Source: a virus
Taxonomy: Duplodnaviria; Heunggongvirae; Uroviricota; Caudoviricetes
Virus record (IMG/VR): IMGVR_UViG_3300044712_000823
Span: 64,001 to 88,710 of that record
DNA: 24,710 bases
Direction: 5' to 3' (one strand)
Below the pieces are notes generated by a model. That model had not been told where the DNA came from, searched no databases, and was given only the letters and a program-made list of their open reading frames with translations. The translations under genes were made by a program, and so were the position numbers. Positions 2,131-16,742 of this stretch are shown here, piece after piece; within the stretch, counting starts at the first letter, position 1; each line of letters starts with the position of its first letter.

Positions 2131-2607
2131 TTATTTCGGTTGTCTAGGATCTAGATCGCCTCTTTCAATTTTATTTTCAGCAGATTCGCCGCCTGGCATT
2201 TCACCATCGTCAGTGATTAAGCCTGTGCAATGATAGAAACCGTGTTCATCAATTTTGTATGTGAAATTGAAGTACAATTCTCTTTCATCGTCCGCGCCCG
2301 GAGAAGTAATTTTTCCGTCTAGTGTTGCACCAAAGATGCCACCAAATGGACGCAAAACAAATATCTCTGATCCATTTTTTAAATCAGGAAAAATTGCTCT
2401 AGGTAATTCTAATCCATAGTTGCGTAAAACTTTAGCAGCTTTTACCCATCCAGCATAAGGATTCACAAAATCTTGGGCCAAAACAGCAGCAAGATTCCTG
2501 TTGGCTTCAAGACGGGTTTCCGGCTTTGCCAGATCCGCCTTAGTGAAGTCAACAGAAACTACTGTTGCAGGACCACCTTCGGTTAGATAGTCTTTAAATT
2601 TCAACAT
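2131..2607 (-). CDS. Hypothetical protein with capsid-targeting-like N-terminus
   Basis: Begins MLKFKDYLTE; packed 7 nt and 5 nt from its neighbours. Confidence 0.75.
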   Translation of the reverse strand: MLKFKDYLTEGGPATVVSVDFTKADLAKPETRLEANRNLAAVLAQDFVNPYAGWVKAAKVLRNYGLELPRAIFPDLKNGSEIFVLRPFGGIFGATLDGKITSPGADDERELYFNFTYKIDEHGFYHCTGLITDDGEMPGGESAENKIERGDLDPRQPK

Positions 2608-2614
2608 GATTCAA

Positions 2615-3295
2615 TTAAGTAATAGTGATTGTGTTGTTTTGTGATGTTGCGGTAACGCCTTGATCTGCGGCGGTCACAATGACACGGTATCTGTTTGTTG
2701 TGTTTGCAGTTGTGGCTGGCTTCACATACAGAGTAGAAGTTGTGGCACCAGCGAACTGAATGTTTGCAGTGTTTGCTGGAATGTTTGCCCAACCATATGA
2801 ACCGGTCGAATTGTTGTATTGCCACTGATATGTCAATGTTGCAGCAGTATTTCCAACCAATGTAGGTGTTACAGTAAATGTTGCTACGTTTGCGAAAGAA
2901 GCATTCGAAACAACTGATGTGTCGCCAGAAGTGACCAACGTAATAGTTACGTTAGGATATTGTTGACCATCACCATCTGGACCATTAATAGTATTTAAAG
3001 CCACTAAAACTTCATGCGTAACGCGACCTGCACGACCACCTGAGCCTGTCGTTCTCAATACCCAACCGGCGTGAGGTGCATGTGTGGCCAAAGCTTCTTG
3101 TGCATCGACACCAAAAAGACCAATTGTGGCACCTTGTGTGTATACATTGGCGGATGTATTTCCGTACAACAATGCAACGTTAGCTGCTGTCGGCGCGGCA
3201 ACGTTAGCTTCTGTTTGTACATTGTTCATAATCGTTGAATTCACAGCCCAGTATGGTGCGTTGGCTGCGTTATCGAATTTACCCCATGAGGACAT
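2615..3295 (-). CDS. Virion structural protein with C-terminal Ig-like domain (head decoration or fibre-like)
   Basis: Thr/Ala/Asn-rich. C-terminal TLTYQWQ...GATTSTLYV...YRVIVT pattern typical of phage Ig-like domains. SD AAGGAG at 3304-3309 and a late-promoter-like site upstream. Confidence 0.72.
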   Translation of the reverse strand: MSSWGKFDNAANAPYWAVNSTIMNNVQTEANVAAPTAANVALLYGNTSANVYTQGATIGLFGVDAQEALATHAPHAGWVLRTTGSGGRAGRVTHEVLVALNTINGPDGDGQQYPNVTITLVTSGDTSVVSNASFANVATFTVTPTLVGNTAATLTYQWQYNNSTGSYGWANIPANTANIQFAGATTSTLYVKPATTANTTNRYRVIVTAADQGVTATSQNNTITIT

Positions 3296-3319
3296 TTTTG
3301 TTTCTCCTTAGAAAGAATC

Positions 3320-3334
3320 TATTTACTATTTATT
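3320..3334 (-). promoter_or_regulatory. T4-type late promoter-like site (AATAAATA followed by GTAAATA)
   Basis: 7/8 match to TATAAATA at 3327-3334, overlapping the upstream stop codon, about 30 nt before a structural gene. Confidence 0.6.
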
Positions 3335-4763
3335 AATTGCTAGGTTTAGCACTATTTGGACGAGTTTTCAACATAGGCTCAATTTCCACAGTATCACGGG
3401 GTTGTCCTGTCATAGTGGTTCCACCTTTAACAACAATTTTTGCATTAGGCTTGTCGTCCTTTTCCCAATCATACGTTGTCTCTTTAATTTTATTTTTATA
3501 AAGAGATTTAATCATACGTGCCGATTTCATCTGTTTATTGCGATGCGCCGATTCCATTGCTTTCACGGAATTTGTTGCAGAAAGAGGCGAATCTTCTATT
3601 CCGCCGATGCCCTCTTGAACATTTTCTGGCACACAATTTGGAACAGTTCTGGAACCCTTTTTCTTTGTTCCTACCATTTGGTAGCCTTTCCAGCAAGGAT
3701 CAGCACCCTTCATTTTCTTTTCTTCGCGTGTGATATGGTCATCAATTTCCATGTTGTCTGGCATTTTTTTCAACTCAGACATAACACGCGCCTTGGATTC
3801 TGCACTTGAAGCCCCTAAATGTCTTTTAGTTGACTTTCTGTATTTCTGTAGTGCAGTGTTGAGTGATTTGGATGAACTACGTTTCGAAGCAGCATCACCT
3901 TGTTTACTCAACTTTTCGGCATCCGCTCTAGCTTTTGTTGCGTAACTAGTTAGAGTTGCTTTTTTCAATTCATCAATCTGTTCAAATTCTTCAGAAATCT
4001 TTACGATAGCATCATATTGCGCCATCGACAAAGTTCCATCTTTACGCATATTGATTAGATTCTCTACAACTTTGTGTAAGTCCATATCAGTCTTTGCATC
4101 TTCACGCGCATATTCAAGAACACGAATAAGTAAAGGAATATCCATTGTCACGGTGTCTTTTTCATCCAGTTCTTCTTTGAGCTTTTTGGCTTTCTTTTTC
4201 ACTGGTTCACTACTACCCGTTTCTTCATTCCAATCGTCGCCACGTTCACCCATTCCAGAAGTTTCTTCTAAAGGATCAACTTCTTCTTGTTTGACGGTAC
4301 CGTGTTTTTGTTTGAAGATTTTGAATTCACTTGAACGTGCATAAGCATGTTTTTGATTTCCATCCATTGTCAAAGGATTCAGACCCTTTGCTTTGATGTA
4401 AGTCATCAACAAACCGGTTCCAGCCTCATCCAAACTCTCAACTTCTTCTGTCGTTGGTGACTGAACTTTTACTACTCCTCTTTCCATATGCGCTTGTTTG
4501 TAATGCTTAAATGCATTCGAACGTGCATACTTGGAACGTTGTGCAAAAGACATAATCTTTGGATTGTAACCAAGAGATTTGATATATGAGAACAGCCAAG
4601 AGTCTTCTTCCAGTGTTTCAACTTCTTCGTTTTTCACTGGAGAATTATACTTAGCCGACCATGGTTCCATTGGATCATCGAATGGTGAATCACCAAGTTT
4701 GCCCATTACGGACTCCTTCTTGGTCTTCACCAACAATTTGACTAGTTTACCGGCGTTGCTCAT
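3333..4763 (-). CDS. Modular charged protein, putative internal-head polyprotein
   Basis: SD GAGGA. Basic modules separated by acidic E-x-x-[LIV]-[DE]-E linkers; two ~45 aa internal repeats; DPCWKGY...VPNCVP module. Confidence 0.75.
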   Translation of the reverse strand: MSNAGKLVKLLVKTKKESVMGKLGDSPFDDPMEPWSAKYNSPVKNEEVETLEEDSWLFSYIKSLGYNPKIMSFAQRSKYARSNAFKHYKQAHMERGVVKVQSPTTEEVESLDEAGTGLLMTYIKAKGLNPLTMDGNQKHAYARSSEFKIFKQKHGTVKQEEVDPLEETSGMGERGDDWNEETGSSEPVKKKAKKLKEELDEKDTVTMDIPLLIRVLEYAREDAKTDMDLHKVVENLINMRKDGTLSMAQYDAIVKISEEFEQIDELKKATLTSYATKARADAEKLSKQGDAASKRSSSKSLNTALQKYRKSTKRHLGASSAESKARVMSELKKMPDNMEIDDHITREEKKMKGADPCWKGYQMVGTKKKGSRTVPNCVPENVQEGIGGIEDSPLSATNSVKAMESAHRNKQMKSARMIKSLYKNKIKETTYDWEKDDKPNAKIVVKGGTTMTGQPRDTVEIEPMLKTRPNSAKPSN

Positions 4764-4765
4764 GC

Positions 4766-5704
4766 TTATTCCTCTTTAGCAGCCTTTGTAGCTGTAGCAT
4801 ACATTACTGATTTTGCTCTATCGCCATAACGTGCTTTGAAACCTGCTGTATCTTTTTTCATACCTTTAACGATGCGTTCTTTTTCAGCAGTTTCGCCGGC
4901 AGACAATGCTCGTTCTTCAAGTTGCTCAACACCTTCGGATGTAAGTTTTGCGCCAACATTTCTTTCATGTGCGCCTTGTAGTGCATCCATGTCTTTCTTA
5001 GCTTTTTCTTTTGTTTCAGCAGGCTTTTTAGCCATCTTTTCCATCTTTTTACCGATATAAGACTTGACAGTAGATTTCTTCAGTTCATCAAGTCGCTCGA
5101 TTGCAGACATTGTATCCTCTACAATCTGATCGATCAACAGTGGTTCATAATCCGTTTCTTCTTTACGTAGTTTAGCAAGAACTGCGCCGGCAACCTTTTT
5201 ACCAGTTTCAGTTGAACCGTAACGTGCTGCTGCACCTTTAGCGATTTTCTTGAACATTTTGCCTGGCTTACCAATATCTTTACCGGCAGCGGCAGCTTTA
5301 GCGGAATAAGAAGCTTCGTCTACTTGTTCAATATCTTCTTTAACTTTTTTCTTCTTGTCATCAGCGTCATCATGTTCTGGTTTTTCTTTTTGTTTAGAAC
5401 CACCATAACGTGAGCCTTGTTTGATACCAGAGCCGCCCGATGGTTGTGGACCAGAACGCTCCCTAGAGGCTCTTAACATGTCCTCCCAGCCTTCTTCAAC
5501 TTTCTCCGAATCTTCTTTTACGGCTTTCTTTTCACCGCGAAGCATTTTAAAGTCTTGTGCATCAAGTTTGTTGTTCTTGTTTTTATCAAGAACTTTTTGG
5601 TTGCCTTTTAGTTCTTCCATTTTAGCTTGAGTTTTAGCCTCAAGCATAGGCTTAACTAAGTCAGCGATAGGATCTTTTTGTGTGAATACGTTTTTGTTGA
5701 ACAT
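4766..5704 (-). CDS. Modular Lys/Glu-rich protein, putative internal-head polyprotein with EF-hand-like loop
   Basis: SD AAGGGG. Linkers EQVDE, ERLDE, EQLEE; loop DKNKNNKLDAQDF. Confidence 0.75.
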   Translation of the reverse strand: MFNKNVFTQKDPIADLVKPMLEAKTQAKMEELKGNQKVLDKNKNNKLDAQDFKMLRGEKKAVKEDSEKVEEGWEDMLRASRERSGPQPSGGSGIKQGSRYGGSKQKEKPEHDDADDKKKKVKEDIEQVDEASYSAKAAAAGKDIGKPGKMFKKIAKGAAARYGSTETGKKVAGAVLAKLRKEETDYEPLLIDQIVEDTMSAIERLDELKKSTVKSYIGKKMEKMAKKPAETKEKAKKDMDALQGAHERNVGAKLTSEGVEQLEERALSAGETAEKERIVKGMKKDTAGFKARYGDRAKSVMYATATKAAKEE

Positions 5705-5717
5705 TTTTTACCCCTTA

Positions 5718-6002
5718 TTAGCAATTCCAACGTCTTAGAGCTTTATTGATTGGTGAATCAGGATCACGTGCGTTTTTGGTCGACGTTAATCTCTTTTTCA
5801 TACCAGACATTCTTGAGCAAAAACTTTTACGTCTTGATGCTCGTTTACCTTTTGGATTCTTTTCGGTTACAGCAGTTTGCAGTTTTGAACCTGGATTCTC
5901 ACGGCGATAAGCATTGACAGCCTTTTGACTCAGACCATCTGTCTTGTCTTTTCTATTTACATCCTGCCAATCTTCTCCCAAAAATTCTTTAAAAGATTTC
6001 AT
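5718..6002 (-). CDS. Small, highly basic two-Cys protein (recalled as DUF6321-like) with capsid-targeting-like N-terminus
   Basis: Begins MKSFKEFLGE; motif RRKSFCSRM...DPDSPINKALRRWNC; ATGA overlap with the upstream gene. Confidence 0.8.
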   Translation of the reverse strand: MKSFKEFLGEDWQDVNRKDKTDGLSQKAVNAYRRENPGSKLQTAVTEKNPKGKRASRRKSFCSRMSGMKKRLTSTKNARDPDSPINKALRRWNC

Positions 6003-8053
6003 TTCTTTTTCTTCTTGTTTGAAACCATATTTACGGTTTTATCTAACATCGATTCGGGTGGCTCTTTGTTGGAAGGGCCATGATATCCACCAGTAACACC
6101 CATATCTACGCTGGGTGAATCAATTGACTCTTTTCTGAATTTAGAAAATGATTTGCGCGTTACCTCTGTGGTACTACCGTATTTATTCTCTGTCTGTTCT
6201 CTATATGTAACATTTCCAAGTCCAGACATTGGATACACTGTACCTGAACCGCGAGTATCATACTCGGGTGAAACACCAGCCGGCTTAATTACTTTACCTG
6301 CTTCGGCTGGGCTGGTTTTTTGCTTTTTGGCTTTGATTTTGTCGTTGTCTTGCTGGAACCTGGTTTCTTTTGGCTCTGGTTTGACTTCAATGCTGGGGCT
6401 TGTTTCTTCGTGGTACGTGCGGAAGGTGTACTTTGTGTTTGAGGCAATGTCTCCGTCGGTAACTGAATCTGCTCTTCCTGCTTTGGCTGTGAGTTGGCAG
6501 GCTGGACAGATGTTGTCAACGAGTTTGAATCGCTTGTAAGTGCCGCTCTTTTTGTCGGTCCGTCCAGTGGGTGCGGTTTTGTCTCCACAGGAGCAGTCTG
6601 CTCCTTCGGCATGAATAGTCTGGCTAGCGTCTTGAACATCATCTTTCTCCTCGAATCTTAAACGATTTCTTAATGTTTCTATTGATTTTTGAATATCAGC
6701 ATTTTGTTGCTGTTTCTTCTTGCGTAAATTTTGAATTTCTCTTTGCACCATACCTTCACGGTTTCTTTTACCGTATGCAGTCATTGGTGTATTCTGTGTA
6801 CGATTGACAACTTGTTCAAATAATCTATCGACAATCATACCTTTATTGTTCTTAAACATCCATTTATCAACAATTTCATTTTGAATCGGAATATCAAAGA
6901 ACCAATTTGACATTTCGTGTATGATTGCAATATCTTCTTCTTTTTGTGCAATCTCAAAATCATTAGCTTCTTTTAAATCCAATGAATTGTCGAATTCCAA
7001 ATATTTGTTGAATCGTGAATTGAAATCTTCTGTTATTTTTTGAGCAATTTCCCAACGCTCTTGTCTAACAGATTCTGCCATCATCTTTTCACGACCTTCA
7101 TTTCTCTTTTTCGAAGAATCGTTTGTAGTGTTGACGAAGATCATCATTGTTTCATAGCCAAGTTCTTCCAACTCGTTTTTAATTTCAACAATGTTAAATT
7201 GCTCATTCGTCGTTCCATTAATAATCAATGGCTTTCTATTACGAATAGCTTCTCGTCTGAAGTCTTTAGATTGCTCATGCAATTTATGTTTATCATTCAG
7301 AATATTGATTGCAAGAGTCGGGTTCATTTCTGTGGCAGTTTTTTCCGACACAGCTTCACGAATAATAATGTCTTTACCTGAACCAGGTCCACCGCAAATG
7401 AATAATGCTTTGAATAAGCCATGGTTTACATCTTCATGTATACCCATACCTTTTCGCACATCTCTAAAAAGCTCTCTTGCGTGTTTTTCAGGAAGGTGTT
7501 CAGGAACACCTTTTTTGAAGCTATGAAAATCATTATTTGTTGCATGTTCACGCATTTTTGAAGCCGACATACCCTCAACGCCTTCGGAATCCGGATCTCT
7601 CTGACCAGCAGATTTTAGTTCGATTTTCTTGAAGTTGAAAAGAGCTTTTGGATTTTTATCTTTAGTCCCATTATAATCGTGCAACTTTTTTTCATACTCA
7701 GGAATTCGATCTGATCCTGCAACCATAACCAAGTGGTCGTGTCCAGCCGCATTTAGCCTAGCTGCATGTTGCAAAAATGTCGGCATCTCTTTGCTAGACA
7801 CTTCTATGTTAGTATTCGGGAAAAAACGTTTAGCGTGTTTTAGCTTAGTCTTGGCATCGAGTGGATTTTTATTCGCGTCAACAGAATGTGAAATTATAAC
7901 ATGATGTGGAGCCTTGTAATCTCTTGCAATTTCTTTGACTCTATTTACAAGTTTTTCGTGTCCAACTGTCGGCGGATTCATTCGCCCAAAGGCCATCACC
8001 ACTGGGTTTTTGGTCTGCTGATCTTCTTGAACTTTTTGGAGAAATTTTTTCAT
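5999..8053 (-). CDS. HIGH-superfamily (cytidylyltransferase-like) nucleotidyltransferase fused to a P-loop kinase-like domain and a charged tail
   Basis: FGRMNPPTVGH (HIGH equivalent), VAGSDR and MSASKMR (KMSKS equivalent); then KALFICGGPGSGKD (Walker A) near 7372-7395; begins MKKFLQKVQE. Confidence 0.85.
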   Translation of the reverse strand: MKKFLQKVQEDQQTKNPVVMAFGRMNPPTVGHEKLVNRVKEIARDYKAPHHVIISHSVDANKNPLDAKTKLKHAKRFFPNTNIEVSSKEMPTFLQHAARLNAAGHDHLVMVAGSDRIPEYEKKLHDYNGTKDKNPKALFNFKKIELKSAGQRDPDSEGVEGMSASKMREHATNNDFHSFKKGVPEHLPEKHARELFRDVRKGMGIHEDVNHGLFKALFICGGPGSGKDIIIREAVSEKTATEMNPTLAINILNDKHKLHEQSKDFRREAIRNRKPLIINGTTNEQFNIVEIKNELEELGYETMMIFVNTTNDSSKKRNEGREKMMAESVRQERWEIAQKITEDFNSRFNKYLEFDNSLDLKEANDFEIAQKEEDIAIIHEMSNWFFDIPIQNEIVDKWMFKNNKGMIVDRLFEQVVNRTQNTPMTAYGKRNREGMVQREIQNLRKKKQQQNADIQKSIETLRNRLRFEEKDDVQDASQTIHAEGADCSCGDKTAPTGRTDKKSGTYKRFKLVDNICPACQLTAKAGRADSVTDGDIASNTKYTFRTYHEETSPSIEVKPEPKETRFQQDNDKIKAKKQKTSPAEAGKVIKPAGVSPEYDTRGSGTVYPMSGLGNVTYREQTENKYGSTTEVTRKSFSKFRKESIDSPSVDMGVTGGYHGPSNKEPPESMLDKTVNMVSNKKKKK
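6289..6639 (-). CDS. Nested out-of-frame Pro/Lys/Gln-rich protein inside the 684-aa gene
   Basis: SD GAGGAG at 6647-6652, 7 nt before ATG 6639. Amphipathic start MFKTLARLF, then HPLDG and a Lys-rich tail; frame differs from the host ORF. Confidence 0.6.
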   Translation of the reverse strand: MFKTLARLFMPKEQTAPVETKPHPLDGPTKRAALTSDSNSLTTSVQPANSQPKQEEQIQLPTETLPQTQSTPSARTTKKQAPALKSNQSQKKPGSSKTTTKSKPKSKKPAQPKQVK

Positions 8054-9243
8054 ATGTTTCTTATTCCGGCAAAATTTCTTTTAGAGAATTCGCTTCTATT
8101 TACAAACTTATCTGATTCTTTTCCATGGTGGAAAACGTAGCCTTCTGGATTAGCTGCTTCACCACCATGTTCATGTTTAAATTCTTGATGTTGATTCATC
8201 ACATTAATCAACACATTTTTAGCTCTTTGCAAGTGGTTATGTAGTTTGAATAAATTGTTGTAATGTTTCTTATTGCGTTCAATTTTATCCAATTCATCAG
8301 ACAATTCTTTTTGCTTCGCATTTCTATTCTTTTCCACCTTTAGCTTGTCAATCTGCTTATTTTTGGTGGTCTCCAACCATCTCTTGAAATTTTGGTGATT
8401 GGGTGCCTCGTCACTCCTTACGGTGTGATTGATATATGTTTCCAATGAACCACCGACACCTTGGTGTGCTTTGGTTCCAGCATACATATCATCACCATGT
8501 GTGTCATGCATTTGTTTAGCTGCCGTTATATGTTTTTGAAACTCTGCGCGATCTTTAGGTCCAAAATGCACCTTTGAAGTGTCCATTCTAGGATCCACGG
8601 AGAAAACATCAGGATGTGGTTTAAAATTTTCATGGTCAACTTCATGTGACGCATTTAAACTTGATGAATCTTTACCAGTATATGACAAGTGTGTAACTAC
8701 ACCAATCTTTGCTTTCTTGGCTCTAGAGCCGTGAGCACCACTTGCGGTGTATGTTATACCAGAAGGGTTCGGACGGAAAGAAGTACCCTCTTTGGTATTT
8801 TTTTTATCGTCGTCCGTGAACATCATATCACCTTGATAAACACCTTTTTCAGGTGCAACTTTTGGTAAGTGTTTCAATGCAGACTTCAACTTTTCAACAA
8901 GACCAGGTGCGTGACCATGGTTCTTCTCAATGTCCGCAGGAGTGTAATTTATTTTTGGTGTCTTATTGAATGCAGACTTTGAAGCAACAAAAAACTTTCC
9001 TGTTTCTGGATGATGACCATAGACAATCGCTGGTGAACCATCGTATTTTGTTGTCAGTTCTGAAGTTTTTTTACCCTGCTTAACATGTTCAGCAGCGGTT
9101 TCCAATGAAGAAAGCGCATGTTTTACACCCTTCTCACCGGCTTGGAGAGGGCGATCTTCTATATGCGTCAGGTGTTTAATTTGCCTGCTGGCGCCTTCTT
9201 CTGGGTCAGTTTGTTCTTTTAGGTACTGTGAAAACGGTTTCAT
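8050..9243 (-). CDS. ATP-dependent ligase-superfamily (RNA ligase-like) nucleotidyltransferase (recalled as DUF6267-like)
   Basis: Motif I TTKYDGS (K66), III YQGDMMF, IV PEGYVF, V DKFVNR; SD AGAGGA; begins MKPFSQYLKE. Confidence 0.8.
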   Translation of the reverse strand: MKPFSQYLKEQTDPEEGASRQIKHLTHIEDRPLQAGEKGVKHALSSLETAAEHVKQGKKTSELTTKYDGSPAIVYGHHPETGKFFVASKSAFNKTPKINYTPADIEKNHGHAPGLVEKLKSALKHLPKVAPEKGVYQGDMMFTDDDKKNTKEGTSFRPNPSGITYTASGAHGSRAKKAKIGVVTHLSYTGKDSSSLNASHEVDHENFKPHPDVFSVDPRMDTSKVHFGPKDRAEFQKHITAAKQMHDTHGDDMYAGTKAHQGVGGSLETYINHTVRSDEAPNHQNFKRWLETTKNKQIDKLKVEKNRNAKQKELSDELDKIERNKKHYNNLFKLHNHLQRAKNVLINVMNQHQEFKHEHGGEAANPEGYVFHHGKESDKFVNRSEFSKRNFAGIRNI

Positions 9244-9278
9244 TAAAATCCTCTGGAATAGTACACTATGACTATCTT

Positions 9279-10010
9279 TTATTTATAACCCCAAATTTTG
9301 GTATCAACCCAAACGTCCATATCTTCACGTATTAATGAGTGTTTCCCTATGTTAAATTTACCATCAACAAAAGGATGATTAATATCTATTCTCTCAAAAC
9401 TAATACCGAAGTGTTTTAAGTTCGCTTCTAGCATTGCATGACCACATAAAGAAACTCCTCTAGCAGCATGCCATCGCAAAAACAGATACGTGGAAGCGTA
9501 AATATCCATCGTTTCCGGATCAGCAATTGCGAATTGATCGTTCAGTAAAGAATTTTCATCGTCTGTGTCCTTCGAAACGTAAATTTTACCCTTCTCCAAG
9601 CTTGAAAAATCGATAACTTTATTTAAAGCTAGATCAAATCTACTTCTGACAATGAAGTCATATTTTACTGAATTGAAATTTTGATATTTTATTCTTAGAT
9701 TATTCGTTAGATAAATCGAATAAAACATTGATGTGCAAAAATTTGCTGGATGTGAAGCATTAGGAACAAATAGATCCGAATTTATATCCTCAGGCAAATT
9801 CTCATCTAAGATAAAATTTACTGGTCGATACAGATTAAAGATGCCATCATAAAGTGCAAACTTTGAGTGTTTTGGTCTCCAAGTGTGCGCGAAAACATCA
9901 ACATCATATCGATTCAGTAAATTAGCTTTTACATATTCGTGTGCTTTTCTGTAACTACGCGCTTGGCCCGAAAGGCACAGTGCAATTCTCGTCGATGAAT
10001 TGATTGACAT
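9279..10010 (-). CDS. Putative glycosyltransferase-like protein, paralog of 10437-11153
   Basis: RIALCLSGQAR, DVDVFAHTW, YDFIVRSRFDL and NDQFAIA align with the paralog. Start uncertain: ATG 10010 or ACG 9992. Confidence 0.65.
   Translation of the reverse strand: MSINSSTRIALCLSGQARSYRKAHEYVKANLLNRYDVDVFAHTWRPKHSKFALYDGIFNLYRPVNFILDENLPEDINSDLFVPNASHPANFCTSMFYSIYLTNNLRIKYQNFNSVKYDFIVRSRFDLALNKVIDFSSLEKGKIYVSKDTDDENSLLNDQFAIADPETMDIYASTYLFLRWHAARGVSLCGHAMLEANLKHFGISFERIDINHPFVDGKFNIGKHSLIREDMDVWVDTKIWGYK
9280..9287 (-). promoter_or_regulatory. T4 late promoter TATAAATA
   Basis: Exact consensus, overlapping the upstream stop codon, 36 nt before ATG 9243. Confidence 0.8.
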
Positions 10011-10440
10011 ACTTTGTACAAACTCCAGATATATTTTTGCAATTCTTGGTCCATTGCCACCAGTCATCTCTTGCCTCAGGTTGAACAGCAATCGAATTCC
10101 AAGTTAACTCTTTTCCGGGGTAAGTCCATATGTAGTTACTTGAGGTTAAAGTGAAATCATCGTTTTGATGCCAAAAATATTCATAAGGAAGTCCACTTGT
10201 GCTGAGTGACAAAAGTGCGTCCAAGTTTTTACAGTGTAGCCAGAGTCCCTGTTGCTGTAAAAACGTTTCACTAACTTCATAGTCTGGGCGATCATGTCCC
10301 AGAAACCATTTGTCTTTTATTCTCCAAACATCAATTTCACAATCAAATCCCTTTGCTAAAGCAGATTCAATTTGCTGTGGACGATTTTCCAAATTTACGT
10401 CTGGTCCATCAATCAGACCTCTATGTGCAATAAGTATCAT
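9955..10440 (-). CDS. Short glycerophosphodiester phosphodiesterase (GDPD)-like protein, BcbG-like
   Basis: IAHRG...ENRP...GFDCEIDVW catalytic and metal-binding motifs of the GDPD family. Confidence 0.8.
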   Translation of the reverse strand: MILIAHRGLIDGPDVNLENRPQQIESALAKGFDCEIDVWRIKDKWFLGHDRPDYEVSETFLQQQGLWLHCKNLDALLSLSTSGLPYEYFWHQNDDFTLTSSNYIWTYPGKELTWNSIAVQPEARDDWWQWTKNCKNISGVCTKYVNQFIDENCTVPFGPSA

Positions 10441-11153
10441 TGATAAAGACTCTTATGTTTATATTCACCCAAAGGGGTGTGCATGATTGTTTTATCTACC
10501 ATAAATTCTTGCCAAGGTAAACCAAGTCTCTTAATGAAATGTTCCGAAATAACATGTGGACACAAAAGACCTGTCTCCTGATATAGGAATGGAAGATGAT
10601 ATAAAACCTTACAGAATAAACTCATGGTGAAAAAGTTTCCAACCTGGATCATATCCGAGGTACCTTGACCCATATGGTTTCTGTAACCCAAAGTATAAAA
10701 CTTTTGAGGATCAAATTCAGGTAATTCTTCATTGAAGAACAAATCTGGTCTCATACGTATTATAAGATCATATGTCTGTCCTGTCAACATCATATAATCC
10801 TCTAACATAGTCATACCACGACCTACTTTAAACCACATGGAAATTTGGTTTTTTGGCACATGATATGAATTGGTAAATGCTTTTGCACGTTCACTAAAGT
10901 TTTGTTCAAAGGTTTCATACATATCGAAACGCATTTGCCGAACAGGAGTGTACACCTGAGACACTTTACCAAAATCAATCTTAGGACCACCTTCAGTGAT
11001 ACCTCGCTGTGAATGTGGGTCCCAATATGCTTCAGAATCCCACGTTTCAATAAACACATCAGCATCGTATTTGTCGATGATGTGTTTTCGTGTGTTAGGA
11101 GCAACTTGCTCCCAGCACCTCATATGACCAGTTAATAATAGTGCTACTTTCAT
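10437..11153 (-). CDS. Putative glycosyltransferase-like protein
   Basis: KVALLLTGHMR, DADVFIETW, YDLIIRMRPDL and SDMIQVG; lies within the sugar-modification operon. Confidence 0.65.
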   Translation of the reverse strand: MKVALLLTGHMRCWEQVAPNTRKHIIDKYDADVFIETWDSEAYWDPHSQRGITEGGPKIDFGKVSQVYTPVRQMRFDMYETFEQNFSERAKAFTNSYHVPKNQISMWFKVGRGMTMLEDYMMLTGQTYDLIIRMRPDLFFNEELPEFDPQKFYTLGYRNHMGQGTSDMIQVGNFFTMSLFCKVLYHLPFLYQETGLLCPHVISEHFIKRLGLPWQEFMVDKTIMHTPLGEYKHKSLYQ

Positions 11154-11821
11154 TTTCTTTTTGCAACCCAGAATCTACGCATACCACCACCATCATTGCG
11201 ATTATAATTTTCACGTTCCGCATCACCCGTTACAACCCAATCGTAACGATGAATACCATCATTTAAATCCGCATCATCATAACGTTTAAATTCGAAGCCG
11301 TTATCTTCAAAAACTTTTTCAACATATGATGCACTAGGTCTTGTTGCGATCTTTTTATCATTGATAGCTTGATCGTAACCATCAGGATCAATAACCTTAG
11401 CTTCAAAAATCTTATTAGTGTCAGCAATTTCGCTTTCTAAAATAATCAGATCAGTATGTTTCAATGCACATTCCAAATCTTGCTTCCAATTATCCAGGTG
11501 ATACATTACGCCAAAGTGAATAACAATATCAAATTTACGGTTGAGATTCCATTCATTTTCTTGGTCAAGCTGAAAGACTTCAGAACCTGGATTGTTTTCT
11601 TGTATATTTTGAATGTGTTCCACACGACCCTCAGTGAAGGTTACGTTTGCACCACGATTCTCTTTGAAGTGCTTACCAATGTCACCGAAACCACATGCAA
11701 GCTCAAGAATAGATTTGCCTTTGAAAAAGTCTTCACCAAAAATCTGTTCGATTTTTTTTATTCTGACTGGCCTCCATGATCTGTAGTGATCCATGAATTT
11801 GCTATTTTCTTCTCTTTTCAT
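11150..11821 (-). CDS. Class I SAM-dependent methyltransferase
   Basis: SAM motif ILELACGFGDIG and FDIVIHFGVMYHL. Start moved to ATG 11821 (ATGA overlap). Confidence 0.88.
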   Translation of the reverse strand: MKREENSKFMDHYRSWRPVRIKKIEQIFGEDFFKGKSILELACGFGDIGKHFKENRGANVTFTEGRVEHIQNIQENNPGSEVFQLDQENEWNLNRKFDIVIHFGVMYHLDNWKQDLECALKHTDLIILESEIADTNKIFEAKVIDPDGYDQAINDKKIATRPSASYVEKVFEDNGFEFKRYDDADLNDGIHRYDWVVTGDAERENYNRNDGGGMRRFWVAKRK

Positions 11822-13188
11822 TTGTGGTGTTCCAAGTAGTGATTCAAATCTTCTGGTGTACCCAAGCCCCACATACGTTCAATATTTTTTACACGAATCT
11901 TTTTCCCATCTTGAATTGCTTCATTGAAAACTGGGCAGACATAGAATTCGTTATTGACGCGAATGTTTTTAGAAATCATTTGTTCTGCATACTTGACATA
12001 ATCTTTACCATGTTTCCAGTAATAGATGCCGACTGTAGCAATATTTGAAATGGGTTTCTTTTCTGCAACTTCGGAAACAAAACCATTTTCATCTAGTTTT
12101 GCGAATGACCATTTTGGATGTGTAGATTCGAACGTAACAATACCACCATCGATCATGTCCGCAGTGAAAGCATACAGACACTCGTTTGAATTCCATTCAA
12201 CGAATTGGTCGGAGTTTGCCATCAGTAGTGGCTCATCATTATCAATAAATTGTTTAGCCAGCAGCGTGGTGCAAGCTGCACCCTCGGTCAAACCGTCTAC
12301 CTGAACAATGTCACAACCAGGCGCAATCAGATTTAGCACAGACTGTAAATTATATTTTTCATAATGTTCTTTTTGAACAATGAAAACAAAATGTGCATCT
12401 ACATTCAAGTTATCCACTACAATTTGAATCATTGGCTTTCCATTAACTTCAATTAGTGGCTTCGGGAAAGTATAGCCTGCTTGAGCGAATCTTGAGCCTG
12501 CTCCAGCCATAGGAATCAAAACATTCATTTTTTTATTTCTCCATGGAATCTTTTTTTGGTTGCCTGCATTAACATGTTCTTTGCAGAAATTAATAAAATC
12601 GGTGAACTTTAAATCATATGCATCTTTTACTGGATACAAATTTGCTCCAGAGTTGATTGCACCTTCACGACCAATGTGCGAATCTTCTACAATGATTGTG
12701 TCTTTTGGTAATGCTTTAAGTTTGACCATGCATTGCCAATACATTTCTGGGAATGGCTTCGTGTTAAACACATCTTCATTGCTGACAAAGTAATCGACAT
12801 AATCCATGGCACCACTTGACAACAAAGCAATCTTGATCGTTTCGCGTATACTATTTGAAGCAACAGCAATTTTCCATCCATCACTTTTAAGTGATGACAT
12901 AGAAAATAAAACATCTCTATTGTAGTATGCATTTGGAATTAACTTGAATGTAGCTTCTTGTTTGTCTTTCCAAACTTGGTCATATGTACTAACAGGAAGA
13001 CCTTTTTCTTCCGTCAGCATCTTTAATTTCTTTGTTGTGTTTAGGCCATCATATTTGCTCAGATGTTCCTCACGTGTGATAACATATTTTTCATCAACTT
13101 TACGTAAAGCATCATTTAATGCATCATAATGCAATTCACGTGAATCAAGAATCACACCATCTAAATCAAAAATAACTAACTTATTCAT
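11818..13188 (-). CDS. HAD phosphatase fused to a sugar-nucleotidyltransferase-like domain (BcbE-like)
   Basis: HAD motifs FDLDGV, VASNS, KPFP and IVEDS; then LIPMAGAGSRF...FPKPLI, ANSDQ and GIYYWK. Start moved to ATG 13188. Confidence 0.9.
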   Translation of the reverse strand: MNKLVIFDLDGVILDSRELHYDALNDALRKVDEKYVITREEHLSKYDGLNTTKKLKMLTEEKGLPVSTYDQVWKDKQEATFKLIPNAYYNRDVLFSMSSLKSDGWKIAVASNSIRETIKIALLSSGAMDYVDYFVSNEDVFNTKPFPEMYWQCMVKLKALPKDTIIVEDSHIGREGAINSGANLYPVKDAYDLKFTDFINFCKEHVNAGNQKKIPWRNKKMNVLIPMAGAGSRFAQAGYTFPKPLIEVNGKPMIQIVVDNLNVDAHFVFIVQKEHYEKYNLQSVLNLIAPGCDIVQVDGLTEGAACTTLLAKQFIDNDEPLLMANSDQFVEWNSNECLYAFTADMIDGGIVTFESTHPKWSFAKLDENGFVSEVAEKKPISNIATVGIYYWKHGKDYVKYAEQMISKNIRVNNEFYVCPVFNEAIQDGKKIRVKNIERMWGLGTPEDLNHYLEHHK

Positions 13189-14011
13189 GTTTATTGAACT
13201 TTCTAAGAATAGAACGAACTTCTTCCATTGGTGCATTTGGATCCATTTTATGCAATTCGAACATATCAGGATTATAGAAGTATGACATCAACAATAGACC
13301 TTGATCGTCATCAACAAGACCATTTTGCATCAATGTTTTCAATGAAGATTGCATACTATCTTTAAGTGTAGCCCATTGTTCTTTTTGTCCAACAAAAACG
13401 CCACCAATAATATAGACAATGTTATTCAGAACTGCAATCGTAACATCAGCAGTTGAGTTGCGGAGATTAGGCTCACGGTAGTTGAAATAGTGCATCAAAC
13501 CTGGAGTGAAATCATATTCCCACTTTTTGCTTTGTGGAATATGTTCATCATCACGGCAATAACCGAAATCGACCCATGCAGCCCACTCATTCGTGATTAA
13601 CCCACGTTCATATGCATCATGCACATAGAATGCTTTTAGAGAAGTTACACCAACATAATCTTTCGACCAATATTCTGGATTACGAACTTGATACGGATTG
13701 ATTCTCTTAATGAAGTTTGGATCTTTTTGGATTCTCTCAATATTCTCACGCAAATCTTTATGAATGTTGAAATAGTCATATTCAACAACTTTAATTTTTG
13801 GTGAAATTTTTGAAATCTTTTCTGTGAGATCAGGAGAAGTGTAAACAATTATTTCAGCATCGATTTCACACATTCGTGCAAAATGATCGAAATATTTCTC
13901 GTTTGATCTTTCAAGATAGTGAGGAAGTGGCCCGCCATTCTTTTCAAGTTGTGTCGTCCAATCGCCACGACCAATATCATAGAAAGCGGTCACAATAGAA
14001 ATTTTGCTCAT
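13181..14011 (-). CDS. HtrL/YibB (WlaTC-like) family putative glycosyltransferase
   Basis: SIVTAFYDIGRG.W, RS..KY...F, AAWVDFG, GGVFVG and DDDQ motifs recalled for this family. ATG 14011 has a GGGA SD. Confidence 0.75.
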   Translation of the reverse strand: MSKISIVTAFYDIGRGDWTTQLEKNGGPLPHYLERSNEKYFDHFARMCEIDAEIIVYTSPDLTEKISKISPKIKVVEYDYFNIHKDLRENIERIQKDPNFIKRINPYQVRNPEYWSKDYVGVTSLKAFYVHDAYERGLITNEWAAWVDFGYCRDDEHIPQSKKWEYDFTPGLMHYFNYREPNLRNSTADVTIAVLNNIVYIIGGVFVGQKEQWATLKDSMQSSLKTLMQNGLVDDDQGLLLMSYFYNPDMFELHKMDPNAPMEEVRSILRKFNKHE

Positions 14012-14035
14012 TTTCAAAGTCCCATAGTTATAAAA

Positions 14036-14920
14036 TTATATTTTGTAAGTGAAGTATTTAGGTGAAGTGCCTGTATTAGTGTCCGATTTGACAGAAAATT
14101 GGAATTTTTCCATATAAAATTCCATCCATTCAGGAACTCTATCATATTGGTGTACAATAGTGAAAGGTTTGCCTTCAGAATTATATACGATTCCGTCCTT
14201 CATGTAAGGACGATTTTCCAATAAATAAGGACCAAACTGTTCCATTTGGTCCGGCTTATTAGTTACGTGTGCATTTACTGCCCATGCGTCAGACAATCTC
14301 ATTTTGATTGCTACGTCACTCCATGGTTTATATCCAAGTAACATATTATATGCAGCTTGATCTGCCACCCAATCGGGACGATTTAGTGACATTTGATATA
14401 AGTGAAAACACAAGTCTTTAATGTATTCTGTAGTGCCTGCAAGAATACCGACGTTGTAAACATCATTCTTCATCACATTCTTATAGAAGTAGTGTCCGAA
14501 GTTTTTGATGATGTTATCACGATTCCAAGCTTCATGTTCAATCTTAATTGATTCAGATTGTGCAATGATTCCTTTGTCTTTGCTACCAAAAACTTTTTGC
14601 AGATATTCGCTTGGGTTTTTCTGAAAAATTACATCACGTACATCAGTAGTGATTACATAACGATACAGTTCACCATATAGATCCAAGTAATTGTAAACAT
14701 GCAAGAAACGAAGCATGTGAATCATTTCATTATTCGGATTTGTCGCCTTAATTACATTCACTCCAGCACGTTCAATTTGTTCGATTGTGTGGTTGTCAAC
14801 ATTAATTGCAACTAAAGCAATTTCCCCATCAAAGCCTGATTCCTTAATCGAATTGATCCAAGGCTTCAACAAATCAAATTCATAATTCGTGAAAGCACCA
14901 ATAATTAAATCTTTCGCCAT
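14036..14920 (-). CDS. GT-A fold nucleotide-diphospho-sugar transferase-like protein
   Basis: YVITTDVRDVIFQ, YNVGILAG, DQAAYN and IVHQYDR. Confidence 0.7.
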   Translation of the reverse strand: MAKDLIIGAFTNYEFDLLKPWINSIKESGFDGEIALVAINVDNHTIEQIERAGVNVIKATNPNNEMIHMLRFLHVYNYLDLYGELYRYVITTDVRDVIFQKNPSEYLQKVFGSKDKGIIAQSESIKIEHEAWNRDNIIKNFGHYFYKNVMKNDVYNVGILAGTTEYIKDLCFHLYQMSLNRPDWVADQAAYNMLLGYKPWSDVAIKMRLSDAWAVNAHVTNKPDQMEQFGPYLLENRPYMKDGIVYNSEGKPFTIVHQYDRVPEWMEFYMEKFQFSVKSDTNTGTSPKYFTYKI

Positions 14921-15630
14921 GGGTATTCTCCATTCATTTTATTTTTCATCATTTCATTACCCTTAATGAAGAAGCTATCTTGTACCGAATCGACTCGGCT
15001 TGCTACACGATAGTTTACACTATATTGACCATTGGTGTCAAATTTTTTGAAGTTGTGCATCATAAAAGGTGATAGAATCCTATCAACTTCCGGTTGTTCA
15101 TTTGGATGTCTTGCGCGGCGATACCAATATGGTGAAAAACCAATCGCAGCATTTCTTGGAATCATAAAACAATTCACATCAATGAATTTATCACCCAGCA
15201 CAGAATCCCATTTGCCCAATGATTCACAATCGTCGTTGCAAATGTATTGTCCGTCCTGAGATACAATTCTCCTCAATGAATATGCCCATTCATTTCCTTG
15301 TCGAATGAGTTCAACCAAAGATTCGATATGTGTATTTTCATACCAATTATCTTCATCGAGGAAACAAAGAAAATCACCATCAACTAGATATGAATATGCT
15401 GCGTAAATTCGATGGCCGTTATAACCACTGTGACCAGTATTATAAGGAACATTTACGATGTTAGTTTGGAAATCTTGTAGAATGTCGTGAACAAATCTTG
15501 TCTTTTCAGGTTTATCTACAACAACAATGTGTTCGAAGTTTTTATAAGTTTGTTTTTGAACCGATTTTGCTGCATCATATACTTGGCGATCACCTGTTGT
15601 AGGTGTAATCACCGTCACTTTTGGATTCAT
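14905..15630 (-). CDS. Glycosyltransferase family 2
   Basis: KVTVITPT, QKQTYKNFEHIVVVD and LCFLDEDNWY (DxD). Confidence 0.9.
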   Translation of the reverse strand: MNPKVTVITPTTGDRQVYDAAKSVQKQTYKNFEHIVVVDKPEKTRFVHDILQDFQTNIVNVPYNTGHSGYNGHRIYAAYSYLVDGDFLCFLDEDNWYENTHIESLVELIRQGNEWAYSLRRIVSQDGQYICNDDCESLGKWDSVLGDKFIDVNCFMIPRNAAIGFSPYWYRRARHPNEQPEVDRILSPFMMHNFKKFDTNGQYSVNYRVASRVDSVQDSFFIKGNEMMKNKMNGEYPWRKI

Positions 15631-15631
15631 A

Positions 15632-15913
15632 TTAACTCCGAGTTATTTTTAAGATTCTTTCAATCTGTTTTTCGATTGCTGGTTTTCTGTTTGGCCAATA
15701 TATGTATTCTTTGTCGGCCGTCTTTAAAAGCTTTGTCAGAAAAGGCACAATTAGTTTTTCAACTTCTGCAAGCTTTGCTTTATATGCTTCTGCGGTATCA
15801 GTAGCATCATTGATAACTTTCGAATATTCATCCTCAGAAACGGCTGAAAACCCGAAATCATTATCATCATCAAATTCTTTGAGAATTTTTTGTATATCTA
15901 AGTCTAGTGGCAT
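15632..15913 (-). CDS. Conserved hypothetical protein
   Basis: Operon-packed 93 aa ORF with DFGFSAV and KEYIYWPNR motifs. Confidence 0.75.
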   Translation of the reverse strand: MPLDLDIQKILKEFDDDNDFGFSAVSEDEYSKVINDATDTAEAYKAKLAEVEKLIVPFLTKLLKTADKEYIYWPNRKPAIEKQIERILKITRS

Positions 15914-15920
15914 TTTTTAA

Positions 15921-16715
15921 TTATGGTAATACAATATTTTTTTCATCAATTGTAGCAGATTTACCTACGACCGGACCAATATTGTAAGGTGATTTTGTGA
16001 CAGATTTGAATTGAATTTCCATTGTTATCTGATAGCCTTGGGCTCCTGCTGAAGGCCAACCTTTTCTTTTTTCCTCATCATTCGCTTTTGTCACACCTTT
16101 TGATTGTATCCTTATGCGTAAAATAGCAGTATGATGATTATCCCATAGTGGAATTTTTGGATTCGACGTTTTGTTTAAATCGGCAGGATCATTCTTACCT
16201 AGTAAGTAAAACCCATGTGTCGCAACATTTAAATAATATGTTTTTTTAATGTTGTAATATGAACTGATTGTACTTGTGGGCAACGGAAAAAAGATATCTC
16301 TGCAATTTTTTAAGTCACTATCATATCTTTCTTTTAATGTTAGACCTGATCTTCTAACTCTTGCAATCCATTTATCATCACGATTAGTTTGTATGAAAGG
16401 TTCTACTTTCCATTTACTCTTAATTGCTTGCAAAACTTTTGCGTCAGTACCAAGACCTTTCAAAAACTCTTTCTCCGCACTTCCTTCTGTTTCACCGAAA
16501 GCATATTTTCCGCCACCGAGATGATGTATAACAAGAGAACCAGCGGAAGCTAAATCTTTCTTTAGTTCGCAACCATATTCAACACCACCAATCAAGAGAT
16601 CCAAATCTGGTCTGTCGGAAGAGGCACCGGCAGGCTTATATGATTTTTTAACCCAATTCTTTTTGATTAGGGCTTTCGCCACATTTTCTTCATATAAAAA
16701 ACCTTCTTGTGCCAT
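15921..16715 (-). CDS. PD-(D/E)xK restriction-endonuclease-like nuclease
   Basis: Helix GFLYEENV, then RPDLDL...YGCELKK; basic protein; first gene after a late promoter. Confidence 0.65.
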   Translation of the reverse strand: MAQEGFLYEENVAKALIKKNWVKKSYKPAGASSDRPDLDLLIGGVEYGCELKKDLASAGSLVIHHLGGGKYAFGETEGSAEKEFLKGLGTDAKVLQAIKSKWKVEPFIQTNRDDKWIARVRRSGLTLKERYDSDLKNCRDIFFPLPTSTISSYYNIKKTYYLNVATHGFYLLGKNDPADLNKTSNPKIPLWDNHHTAILRIRIQSKGVTKANDEEKRKGWPSAGAQGYQITMEIQFKSVTKSPYNIGPVVGKSATIDEKNIVLP

Positions 16716-16734
16716 TCTAAGTCCTAAATGAAAT

Positions 16735-16742
16735 TATTTATA
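16735..16742 (-). promoter_or_regulatory. T4 late promoter TATAAATA
   Basis: Exact consensus overlapping the gp41 stop codon, 19 nt before ATG 16715. Confidence 0.78.

Follow-up and report, generated by a model that had tools for sequence, protein, structure and literature searches.

A ligase-fold DUF6267 protein and its NMNAT-like partner as a candidate capsid-delivered enzyme unit of a T4-like phage

The DNA analysed here is a stretch of 24,710 nucleotides (hereafter the window) from an uncultured aquatic virus of the Caudoviricetes, corresponding to positions 64,001 to 88,710 of IMG/VR record IMGVR_UViG_3300044712_000823. Its minus strand carries two overlapping genes that are the subject of this analysis: gene A, encoding a protein of the Pfam family DUF6267, and gene B, encoding a protein that combines a HIGH-motif nucleotidyltransferase domain, a P-loop domain and a basic tail. 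We judge the chances to be about even that the two products constitute a late-expressed, capsid-delivered two-protein enzyme unit of a T4-like myovirus, which seals or modifies nucleic-acid ends early in infection. The computational analysis recovered the folds, the motifs, the linkage between the genes and the leaders that carry this proposal, and these are described in the following.

Proposed role of the gene pair

According to the proposed scheme, gene A would encode a divergent ATP-dependent polynucleotide ligase-type enzyme with K66 as the predicted catalytic lysine, closest to the nick-sealing enzymes Rnl5, Rnl2 and Trl1. The adenylyl- or nucleotidyltransferase domain of gene B, which resembles nicotinamide mononucleotide adenylyltransferase (NMNAT), would dock onto the ligase-like protein, and the decayed P-loop domain, of polynucleotide kinase (Pnk) type, would probably only bind a nucleotide or have a structural or regulatory role. 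The N-terminal leaders would recruit both proteins to the prohead core, a gp21-type protease would trim them after Glu10, and the proteins would be retained in the head and ejected with the DNA. Their most likely job would be the sealing or modifying of broken ends, of RNA or of nicked duplex, soon after infection has begun (within the first minutes), for instance to counter host nucleases, with the HIGH domain providing or regenerating an adenylylated cofactor or intermediate. The packaging of the window copies, their ejection and the substrate are the parts of this scheme that we infer.

An end-joining or end-modifying role is favoured because: i) the ligase motifs appear to have been kept; ii) the nearest folds are those of nick-sealing RNA ligases; and iii) the accompanying P-loop domain comes from a Pnk-type family. 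A preliminary description of this DNA had offered RNA healing and sealing, the rebuilding of nicotinamide adenine dinucleotide (NAD+) and the nucleotidylation of a host target side by side, and the choice between these three is not settled by the sequence and structure evidence.

A ligase-type fold in the DUF6267 protein

The preliminary description had seen in gene A an enzyme of the ligase superfamily without an obvious oligonucleotide/oligosaccharide-binding (OB) domain of the DNA-ligase kind, and this was borne out. In an alignment of 73 diverse homologues (31-59% identity to gene A) the lysine of motif I (TTKYDG), K66, is invariant, as are G76, K89, G181, E367, G368 and N390, and at least 90% of the sequences keep D68, G69, D139, Y163 and K379. 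The invariant pair E367-G368, within PEGYV, is the candidate for motif IV; the motif III-like D139 (YQGDMMF), the motif IIIa Y163 and the motif V-like K379 were placed by eye, on order and spacing only. Alignment with hhalign put PEGYV onto the EGYVLK of Rnl2 at low probability (0.2% against T4 Rnl2), and the segment that precedes motif I aligns with Rnl2 from residue 3 onward.

The AlphaFold2 (AF2) model of gene A (predicted local distance difference test, pLDDT, 93.8; predicted template modelling score, pTM, 0.91) comprises a disordered N-terminal stretch (the first 20 residues), an alpha/beta domain, a helical bundle (residues 229-349) and a last beta unit that contains PEGYV and K379. The bundle is an insert of about 120 residues that interrupts the nucleotidyltransferase domain between the regions of motifs IIIa and IV, a feature that sets gene A apart from the nick-sealing RNA ligases. 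There is no OB domain in the model, which has the helical insert and a short C-terminal beta/alpha unit instead. The DUF6267 copy of phage S-CREM2 (302 amino acids; L105:1456-2364) is without most of the helical insert (profile positions 187-323) and lies far from the HIGH-domain gene of that phage.

In an exhaustive structure search with VIA-align the top 11 rows for gene A were all ligases (Z 8.6-6.8, root-mean-square deviation (rmsd) 3.9-5.5 Å, 174-208 residues aligned). The best match was the Naegleria RNA ligase 5cot (Z 8.6, rmsd 3.9 Å, 184 residues aligned), and the ligase domain of Trl1 (Z 8.1), REL1 (7.6), T4 Rnl2 (7.4) and T4 Rnl1 (7.2) also scored above the DNA ligases, which reached a Z of at most 7.0. 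The leading rows of a Foldseek search with the same model were again all ligases, as weak matches (E about 0.07 or worse). Gene A has the nucleotidyltransferase fold in common with the nick-sealing RNA ligases (Rnl5/NgrRnl 5cot, Rnl2/T4 Rnl2/REL1 and fungal Trl1; Z 8.6-7.4 over 174-208 residues), next to the KxDG lysine nucleophile and, as tentatively assigned, the EG of motif IV and the lysine of motif V. Unlike Rnl2, Rnl5 and Trl1 it has no sequence-level match (no PDB hit, no Pfam RNA_ligase) and lacks the domains that are appended in those enzymes; comparison with solved structures, both of the single sequence and of the 73-sequence profile, gave nothing meaningful. The families PF01068 (DNA_ligase_A_M) and PF09414 (RNA_ligase) had no match in the genomes G000, G001 and G002, of which the latter two are complete relatives, and because both sequence-family tests failed DUF6267 would seem to be a new branch, neither Rnl2- nor gp30-type. 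We conclude from motifs and modelled fold that DUF6267 is a putative, very divergent ligase-type covalent nucleotidyltransferase, which on the model scores appears slightly closer to the RNA ligases than to those that act on DNA. A full-text literature search for 'DUF6267' and 'cytitidyltransferase' found no paper.

The absence of recognizable ligases bears on a different explanation, namely that DUF6267 is the DNA ligase, for replication or repair, that is missing from marine T4-like phages without gp30, and seals Okazaki fragments or nicks. No PF01068, PF01653 (NAD-dependent) or PF09414 domain was found in the two complete relatives, and five Kyanoviridae isolates, each of them with DUF6267, gave no match to PF01068; moreover, gp30 is part of the non-cyanophage core, DUF6267 lies just past gp43, uvsX and gp41 in several phages, and it is unmatched in any Escherichia-named record among the 50,697 phage records that were searched. 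Against this stand the lack of an OB domain in gene A and the slightly higher scores of RNA ligases, a late promoter and a capsid-targeting leader that would suit a replisome enzyme poorly, and the host LigA, which could serve these phages. Since a gp30-type ligase (E 2.5e-15) is encoded in Stenotrophomonas phage DLP6 alongside a full DUF6267 protein (E 1.4e-119), which bears a leader and adjoins a HIGH-domain gene, a simple replacement of gp30 is unlikely; the idea was down-weighted on that account and we hold it to be quite improbable.

The HIGH-motif domain of gene B

The HIGH-fold transferase that had been proposed for the N-terminal part of gene B is supported by invariant motifs as well as by structural matches to NMNATs. 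The domain is the 'cytidyltransferase' of phage annotation (phrog_3041, phrog_395; T4-GC190) and contains the motifs GRMNPPTVGH and SASKMR, with H32, G113, D115, S163 and R168 invariant; GRxNPPTxGH resembles the archaeal/NadM-type GRFQPFHxGH. For the AF2 model (pLDDT 90.6), the VIA-align matches of this domain were headed by the NadM NMNAT 2qjt (Z 13.2, rmsd 3.2 Å, 156 residues aligned), with NMNATs at Z 13.2, 13.1 and 12.9 (archaeal 1f9a) and the phosphopantetheine adenylyltransferase (PPAT) 4nah tied at 12.5. At the sequence level the picture was less specific: the NCBIfam model nadR_NMN_Atrans matched 10 of 44 members weakly (E 3e-5 or worse), gene B of the window stayed below the curated NMNAT cut-offs with only generic cyt_tran_rel matches (23.9 bits, cut-off 27.7), and the best PDB sequence match of the domain was a TmcAL-family protein. 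The domain is therefore best described as NMNAT-like in its modelled structure; membership of the NMNAT family is not established by the sequence models.

A degenerate Pnk-type P-loop domain and a basic tail

The second domain of gene B had been described as a P-loop kinase. The fold and the relationship to the T4-Pnk-type family stood up, but the catalytic residues have been lost and a working kinase step cannot be assumed. Its VIA-align matches were a putative kinase, PSTK, Kti12 and CthPnkp (Clostridium Pnkp), with Z between 11.7 and 10.9. More distant homologues, the kinases of phages HTVC008M, Melnitz, RsoM2USA and Atu_ph07, are collinear with the kinase domain of T4 Pnk, with AAA_33 and Zeta_toxin above cut-off in those of HTVC008M, Melnitz and Atu_ph07. 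The shared Pnk-family motifs occur in order (GxPGSGK[ST], xNxD, D-x-T, RNxxRxxxxP), and a five-sequence profile of the four isolate kinases and the window domain matched T4 Pnk with E 3.9e-9. A NadR-type reading of the domain, as a ribosylnicotinamide kinase, was rejected because the alignment evidence favours the Pnk type.

In the window clade the Walker A motif reads GGPGSGKD, with D228 in place of Ser/Thr in 28 of 28 homologues, MNPT replaces xNxD with its catalytic Asp (the general base, Asp35 in T4 Pnk), NGT replaces D[SG]T with its Walker-B-like Asp, and about 25 residues have been deleted. The three losses are found in all 28 close homologues, and this catalytic decay of the kinase-like domain throughout the clade is new for this window. 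Because these residues have been replaced the domain is unlikely to phosphorylate 5'-OH ends, and to judge from its sequence it is probably not an active polynucleotide kinase; because it is strongly conserved it would still be in use. An inactive kinase domain that is retained has a precedent in fungal ATP sulfurylase, where an inactive adenosine 5'-phosphosulfate (APS) kinase-like domain is kept as a regulatory module; that enzyme was also the top Foldseek match.

The kinase-type domain is lineage-specific: it is a separate gene in HTVC008M, is absent at the cyanophage loci examined (P-HM2, S-CREM2, S-SZBM1) and occurred in no cyanophage record of the phage search. The arrangement recalls the tRNA repair system of T4 polynucleotide kinase (PseT/Pnk) and Rnl1, as the wider P-loop family is collinear with the former and lies beside the ligase-type enzyme in HTVC008M. 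It differs in the GKD, NPT and NGT motifs and the deletion of the window clade, in the lack of a 3'-phosphatase domain and in a ligase that is not Rnl1-like in sequence. Agrobacterium phage Atu_ph07 encodes a jumbo-phage protein of 778 amino acids (L097:4227-6563) with a canonical Pnk-type kinase domain at residues 257-450, flanked by regions without known family. In the tail of gene B, residues 420-500 are variable, a CxC...CxxC stretch is present and the last 160 residues are conserved. An ORF of 117 codons in a different frame is nested in the variable region.

The succession of a HIGH-fold transferase and a P-loop kinase-fold domain is also that of NadR (NMNAT plus ribosylnicotinamide kinase) and of fungal ATP sulfurylase (Foldseek E 6e-7 to 3e-6). 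The resemblance to NadR that had been pointed out earlier holds for this architecture and for nothing beyond it, since the orientation of the domains differs (rmsd about 11 Å), there is no helix-turn-helix domain, no family hidden Markov model matches at cut-off and the kinase is Pnk-type. These data bear on the possibility that gene B is a NadR-like NMN adenylyltransferase and kinase for the supply of NAD+ or a cofactor, carried in against, for example, NAD-depleting defences, and that the ligase-like partner uses the cofactor or is fed by it. Such a function was proposed in the cyanophage papers for virion NMNAT-like proteins (PMC10665884, PMC9602691) and agrees with the top structural matches of the HIGH domain (Z 13.2 for NadM, 12.9 for the archaeal enzyme), with the nadR_NMN_Atrans matches in 10 of 44 members and with the two-domain Foldseek matches to NadR (E 3e-6). 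It has to contend with the fact that no NMNAT model matches at its curated cut-off, that PPAT lies in the tie range (Z 12.5) and that the best PDB sequence match is TmcAL-family; in addition, the P-loop domain is Pnk-type instead of ribosylnicotinamide-kinase-type and is degenerate, the superposition on NadR deviates by about 11 Å across both domains, and the frequent fusion to a ligase-fold domain is left unaccounted for. We therefore consider the supply of NAD+ an unlikely function of the pair.

Linkage of genes A and B

That genes A and B are co-conserved and functionally linked, as had been supposed, was supported by three lines of evidence: synteny, gene fusions and a complex model. The stop codon of gene A and the start codon of gene B share an ATGA overlap. 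The related-locus search with a single protein retrieved close relatives only (76-87% identical), and the overlap is kept in 56 of 72 relatives. The order UvsX and gp41, DUF6267, HIGH 'cytitidyltransferase' recurs in P-HM2, HTVC008M and S-SZBM1, and in Melnitz and DLP6, too, the HIGH-domain gene lies next to DUF6267. When the family is clustered at 50% identity, 40 of 150 representatives are single polypeptides in which DUF6267 and the HIGH domain are fused, in either domain order. Unlike the nick-sealing RNA ligases, the DUF6267 family has an obligatory HIGH-nucleotidyltransferase partner, often fused, and in addition a capsid-targeting leader.

The model of the A-B complex scored 0.78 (median of three runs) on the interaction prediction score from aligned errors (ipSAE), against 0.00 for the best control; 58 of 80 solved complexes came up to that mark, as did 2 of 110 mismatched pairs. 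At least 92% of the contacts are common to the runs, and the partner pLDDT is at least 83 (84 in each run). The predicted interface is formed by residues 223-230 and 351-357 of gene A and residues 114-119 and 145-152 of gene B, and takes in the invariant G113/D115 patch of gene B, beside the HIGH active site. We know of no solved complex of the ligase-like/HIGH type, so that recall of a known complex by the model is unlikely. On the strength of the complex model and the fusions, the two proteins likely form a physical two-enzyme unit. A literature search for phage RNA ligase/NMNAT fusions gave, to judge by titles and abstracts, no related report.

When the additional parts of long DUF6267 fusions were compared with Pfam, the only matches were to a Pol-beta nucleotidyltransferase or a LysM domain, in occasional cases; kinases, phosphatases and nucleases were absent from the results. 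One fusion of DUF6267 and the HIGH domain (P0268, 1145 amino acids) additionally carries an NTP_transf_2 domain, and in S-CREM2 the product of the second gene after the virion 'cytidylyltransferase' (gp156; L085:7013-7726), likewise found in virions, resembles a nucleotidyltransferase of the Pol-beta type. In view of these two cases a third type of nucleotidyltransferase may belong to the same functional set.

With two nucleotidyl-transfer domains held in one predicted complex and fusions that sometimes add a third of the Pol-beta type, one may also think of A and B as a takeover effector that modifies a host protein or RNA instead of joining ends, for which T4 provides a precedent in injected enzyme effectors with capsid-targeting-type processing, such as Alt. 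However, ligase-fold enzymes are not known to modify proteins, no target can be inferred, and the typical end-joining ligase motifs are apparently all retained; we regard nucleotidylation of a host target as very improbable.

Capsid-targeting leaders, late promoter and virion evidence

In T4 the capsid targeting sequence MKTYQEFIAE loads internal proteins into the head (PMC8442874), and targeting depends on positions 4 and 7 of this leader, gp21 cleavage on positions 8 and 10 (PMC9026906). Of the capsid-targeting-like leaders that had been noticed on both proteins, that of gene A fits at all four positions and that of gene B at three, with Lys at position 7 (Table 1). All four positions are also fitted by the leaders of a DUF6321 protein, whose gene is coupled to gene B, and of a 158-aa ORF of the window. 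In the whole 88.7-kb contig the pattern matched only these four ORFs, all within positions 2131-9243 of the window, for a chance expectation that we roughly estimate at 0.2 per contig; the gene B leader was matched by a pattern with a fixed Lys at position 2 and that of the 158-aa ORF only by a looser pattern. In a complete 177-kb relative the pattern matched three real ORFs, all within 7.3 kb.

The leader of gene A is present in 80/80 close relatives and a strict leader in 62/72 copies of gene B. Throughout the related loci the four functional positions are conserved and the non-critical positions vary freely. Within the DUF6267 family the leader is modular: it is found in 29 of 75 diverse representatives, and others start directly at the catalytic domain (conserved HLxHxED segment). 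A gp21-type prohead protease (Peptidase_S77) is encoded by the complete relatives G001 (E 3.4e-35) and G002 (E 1.2e-30); the contig of the window itself, which is 53% complete, does not include the region of the prohead protease. The proteins of genes A and B are basic (pI, isoelectric point, 9.1-9.4), like the internal proteins of T4. The earlier claim of two overlapping late genes was upheld by the two ORFs, the ATGA overlap and the T4-type late promoter box TATAAATA upstream of gene A; 49 of 77 related loci have this box no more than 100 nt upstream, at a constant spacing of about 50 nt. Since both proteins carry a T4-type head-loading tag, as judged from sequence, they are probably injected together with the phage DNA.

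The likeness to T4 capsid-targeted cargo thus extends to the ten-residue leader (aromatic at 4 and 7, aliphatic at 8, Glu at 10), basic proteins, clustered genes and a gp21 homologue in the complete relatives. The T4 cargo consists of small basic proteins and an ADP-ribosyltransferase, unlike the cargo of the window, which is a predicted two-enzyme nucleotidyl-transfer complex in which gene B departs from the rule at position 7.

Independent support for the family of gene B comes from published mass spectrometry of cyanophage virions. S-CREM2 gp154 was found in CsCl-purified virions with 3 peptides (PMC10665884), and S-SZBM1_140 likewise with 2 peptides (PMC9146016); an NMNAT-like protein was detected in virions of S-SCSM1, in a paper that also noted earlier detections in estuarine cyanophages (PMC9602691). 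The leader of gp154, which is 33% identical to gene B (E 8e-26), is MKNFSSFLTE, and that of S-SZBM1_140 is MRFRQFIIE. The leaderless DUF6267 protein of S-SZBM1 (gene 141, adjoining gene 140) is absent from the virion protein table as far as this was available (PMC9146016). These virion proteins (T4-GC190; S-CREM2 gp154, S-SZBM1_140, the S-SCSM1 NMNAT), which are known as 'cytidylyltransferase' or NMNAT-like, share with gene B a homologous HIGH domain, a similar leader and a DUF6267 neighbourhood. The window gene differs from them by the addition of the degenerate P-loop domain and a 285-residue basic tail, and its clade by a DUF6267 partner that is also tagged; as the DUF6267 proteins of cyanophages and HTVC008M are leaderless, only some lineages would package the ligase-like enzyme. 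The earlier idea of a virion-delivered enzyme pair is thus supported by the conservation of the leaders and by the presence of gene B homologues in S-CREM2 and S-SZBM1 virions (PMC10665884, PMC9146016), but NMNAT-like proteins in virions were already in the literature, the S-CREM2 authors having suggested that such enzymes ride in the virion (PMC10665884).

The leaders may be read differently, as mere amphipathic N-termini or as signals for recruitment to the scaffolding core followed by degradation, with the enzymes acting in the cytoplasm late in infection and the virion detections being carry-over. The deviation of gene B from the T4 rule, 11 internal [LI]xE sites in the same protein, the low peptide counts of the homologues and the possible co-purification that the S-CREM2 authors mention (PMC10665884) would agree with this. 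It is at odds with a conservation that falls exactly on the four functional positions, with the modular presence or absence of the leader across the family, with the clustering of the tagged genes and with leader presence tracking virion detection in S-SZBM1, in so far as the protein table of that phage was available. All in all, we deem a pair that is not delivered rather improbable.

Evaluation of the proposed role

Several observations weigh against a delivered end-joining unit. As regards the enzymes, the ligase-fold scores of gene A are middling (Z 8.6; Foldseek E about 0.07), the positions of its motifs III, IIIa and V were judged by eye and from spacing, the kinase domain, which would otherwise speak for end healing, is catalytically degenerate in the window clade, the module yielded neither a phosphatase nor a cyclic phosphodiesterase, and there is no chemical rationale for a lysine-adenylylating ligase to need a HIGH nucleotidyltransferase. 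As regards delivery, gene B has Lys instead of an aromatic residue at targeting position 7, the DUF6267 protein is without leader in cyanophages and in HTVC008M, and the S-CREM2 authors warned that abundant enzymes may co-purify with the particles (PMC10665884).

The finding is real and biologically interesting, but not categorically new: the T4 capsid targeting sequence was already known as a packaging device and NMNAT-like proteins as virion cargo. What is added is the ligase-fold family DUF6267, for which the full-text search found no published description and which is apparently complexed with the NMNAT-like cargo. Few unexplained genes of marine T4-like phages are as widespread as DUF6267 and its 'cytidylyltransferase' neighbour, and the placement in the ligase superfamily together with the predicted tie to an NMNAT-like enzyme makes concrete assays possible for this gene pair, which belongs to the core of cyanophages and pelagiphages. 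Should the tagged versions truly be injected, the internal-protein strategy of T4 would extend beyond small inhibitor proteins to a preformed complex of nucleic-acid enzymes, and this would bear on how abundant ocean phages evade host nucleases or NAD-depleting defences. A wider and more doubtful proposal is that DUF6267 and its HIGH partner are an unrecognised two-enzyme ligation system of essentially all marine T4-like phages, in which the NMNAT-like enzyme would make the adenylyl donor of the ligase or adenylylate the nucleic-acid substrate, and which some lineages would pre-load and inject as a complex to repair RNA or DNA ends cut by defence systems before phage genes are expressed.

Locus and neighbouring genes

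The window is the final 24.7 kb of a virus contig of 88.7 kb that was rated 53% complete. The minus strand carries every large gene between positions 233 and 22892. Next to genes A and B these encode a T4-type DNA polymerase, UvsX, gp41 helicase, a glycan-modification block, several Lys/Glu-rich proteins, a head protein and an endolysin. Among isolated phages, Kyanoviridae and their relatives come closest (Pelagibacter phage HTVC008M, Prochlorococcus phage P-HM2 and many Synechococcus myoviruses). Metagenomes are very rich in close relatives, some of them on complete genomes of 166-177 kb; gene A was matched by more than 5,000 protein clusters at 90% identity, and in the search of 50,697 phage records DUF6267 was found in 465 isolate genomes. 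The coordinates of the features are collected in Table 1.

Table 1. Features of the window; positions refer to the 24,710-nucleotide stretch
Feature	Position	Strand	Size or residues	Remarks
Gene A, ligase-fold DUF6267 protein	8050..9243	-	397 aa	Pfam DUF6267, full length, E 2.4e-95
Gene A leader MKPFSQYLKE	9214..9243	-		F4, Y7, L8 and E10 fit
Gene B	5999..8053	-	684 aa	
Gene B leader MKKFLQKVQE	8024..8053	-		F4, V8 and E10 fit; Lys at 7
HIGH-motif (TxGH) nucleotidyltransferase domain, NMNAT/PPAT-like	7433..8011	-	gene B 15-207	phrog_3041, phrog_395 'cytidyltransferase'
P-loop domain, T4 polynucleotide-kinase type (AAA_33/Zeta_toxin)	6884..7432	-	gene B 208-390	weak AAA_33 and Zeta_toxin matches
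Basic tail	6002..6853	-	gene B 401-684	pI 9.5, mostly low-complexity; no Pfam family
T4-type late promoter box TATAAATA	9280..9287	-		37 nt upstream of gene A start
ATGA overlap, gene A stop/gene B start	8050..8053	-		
ATGA overlap, gene B stop/DUF6321 gene start	5999..6002	-		
DUF6321 gene	5718..6002	-	94 aa	DUF6321 E 6.8e-15; leader MKSFKEFLGE; ATGA-coupled to gene B
ORF with leader MLKFKDYLTE	2131..2607	-	158 aa	no Pfam/PHROG match
Lys/Glu-rich protein	3333..4763	-	476 aa	faint family matches only
Lys/Glu-rich protein	4766..5704	-	312 aa	faint family matches only
ORF nested in gene B tail	6289..6642	-	117 aa	different frame
Block between gp41 and gene A	9279..16742	-		bounded by TATAAATA boxes

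The C-terminal domain of the DUF6321 protein also ends many far longer PHROG families. The 158-aa ORF is a fourth candidate for capsid cargo. The two adjacent Lys/Glu-rich proteins lie between the tagged genes and the head protein and may be core or internal proteins. The block that separates gp41 from gene A contains glycosyltransferase-like, HAD-plus-nucleotidyltransferase, methyltransferase and DUF7796 genes and is bounded by the only two TATAAATA boxes of the window; in HTVC008M and P-HM2, in contrast, DUF6267 follows just a few genes past gp41.

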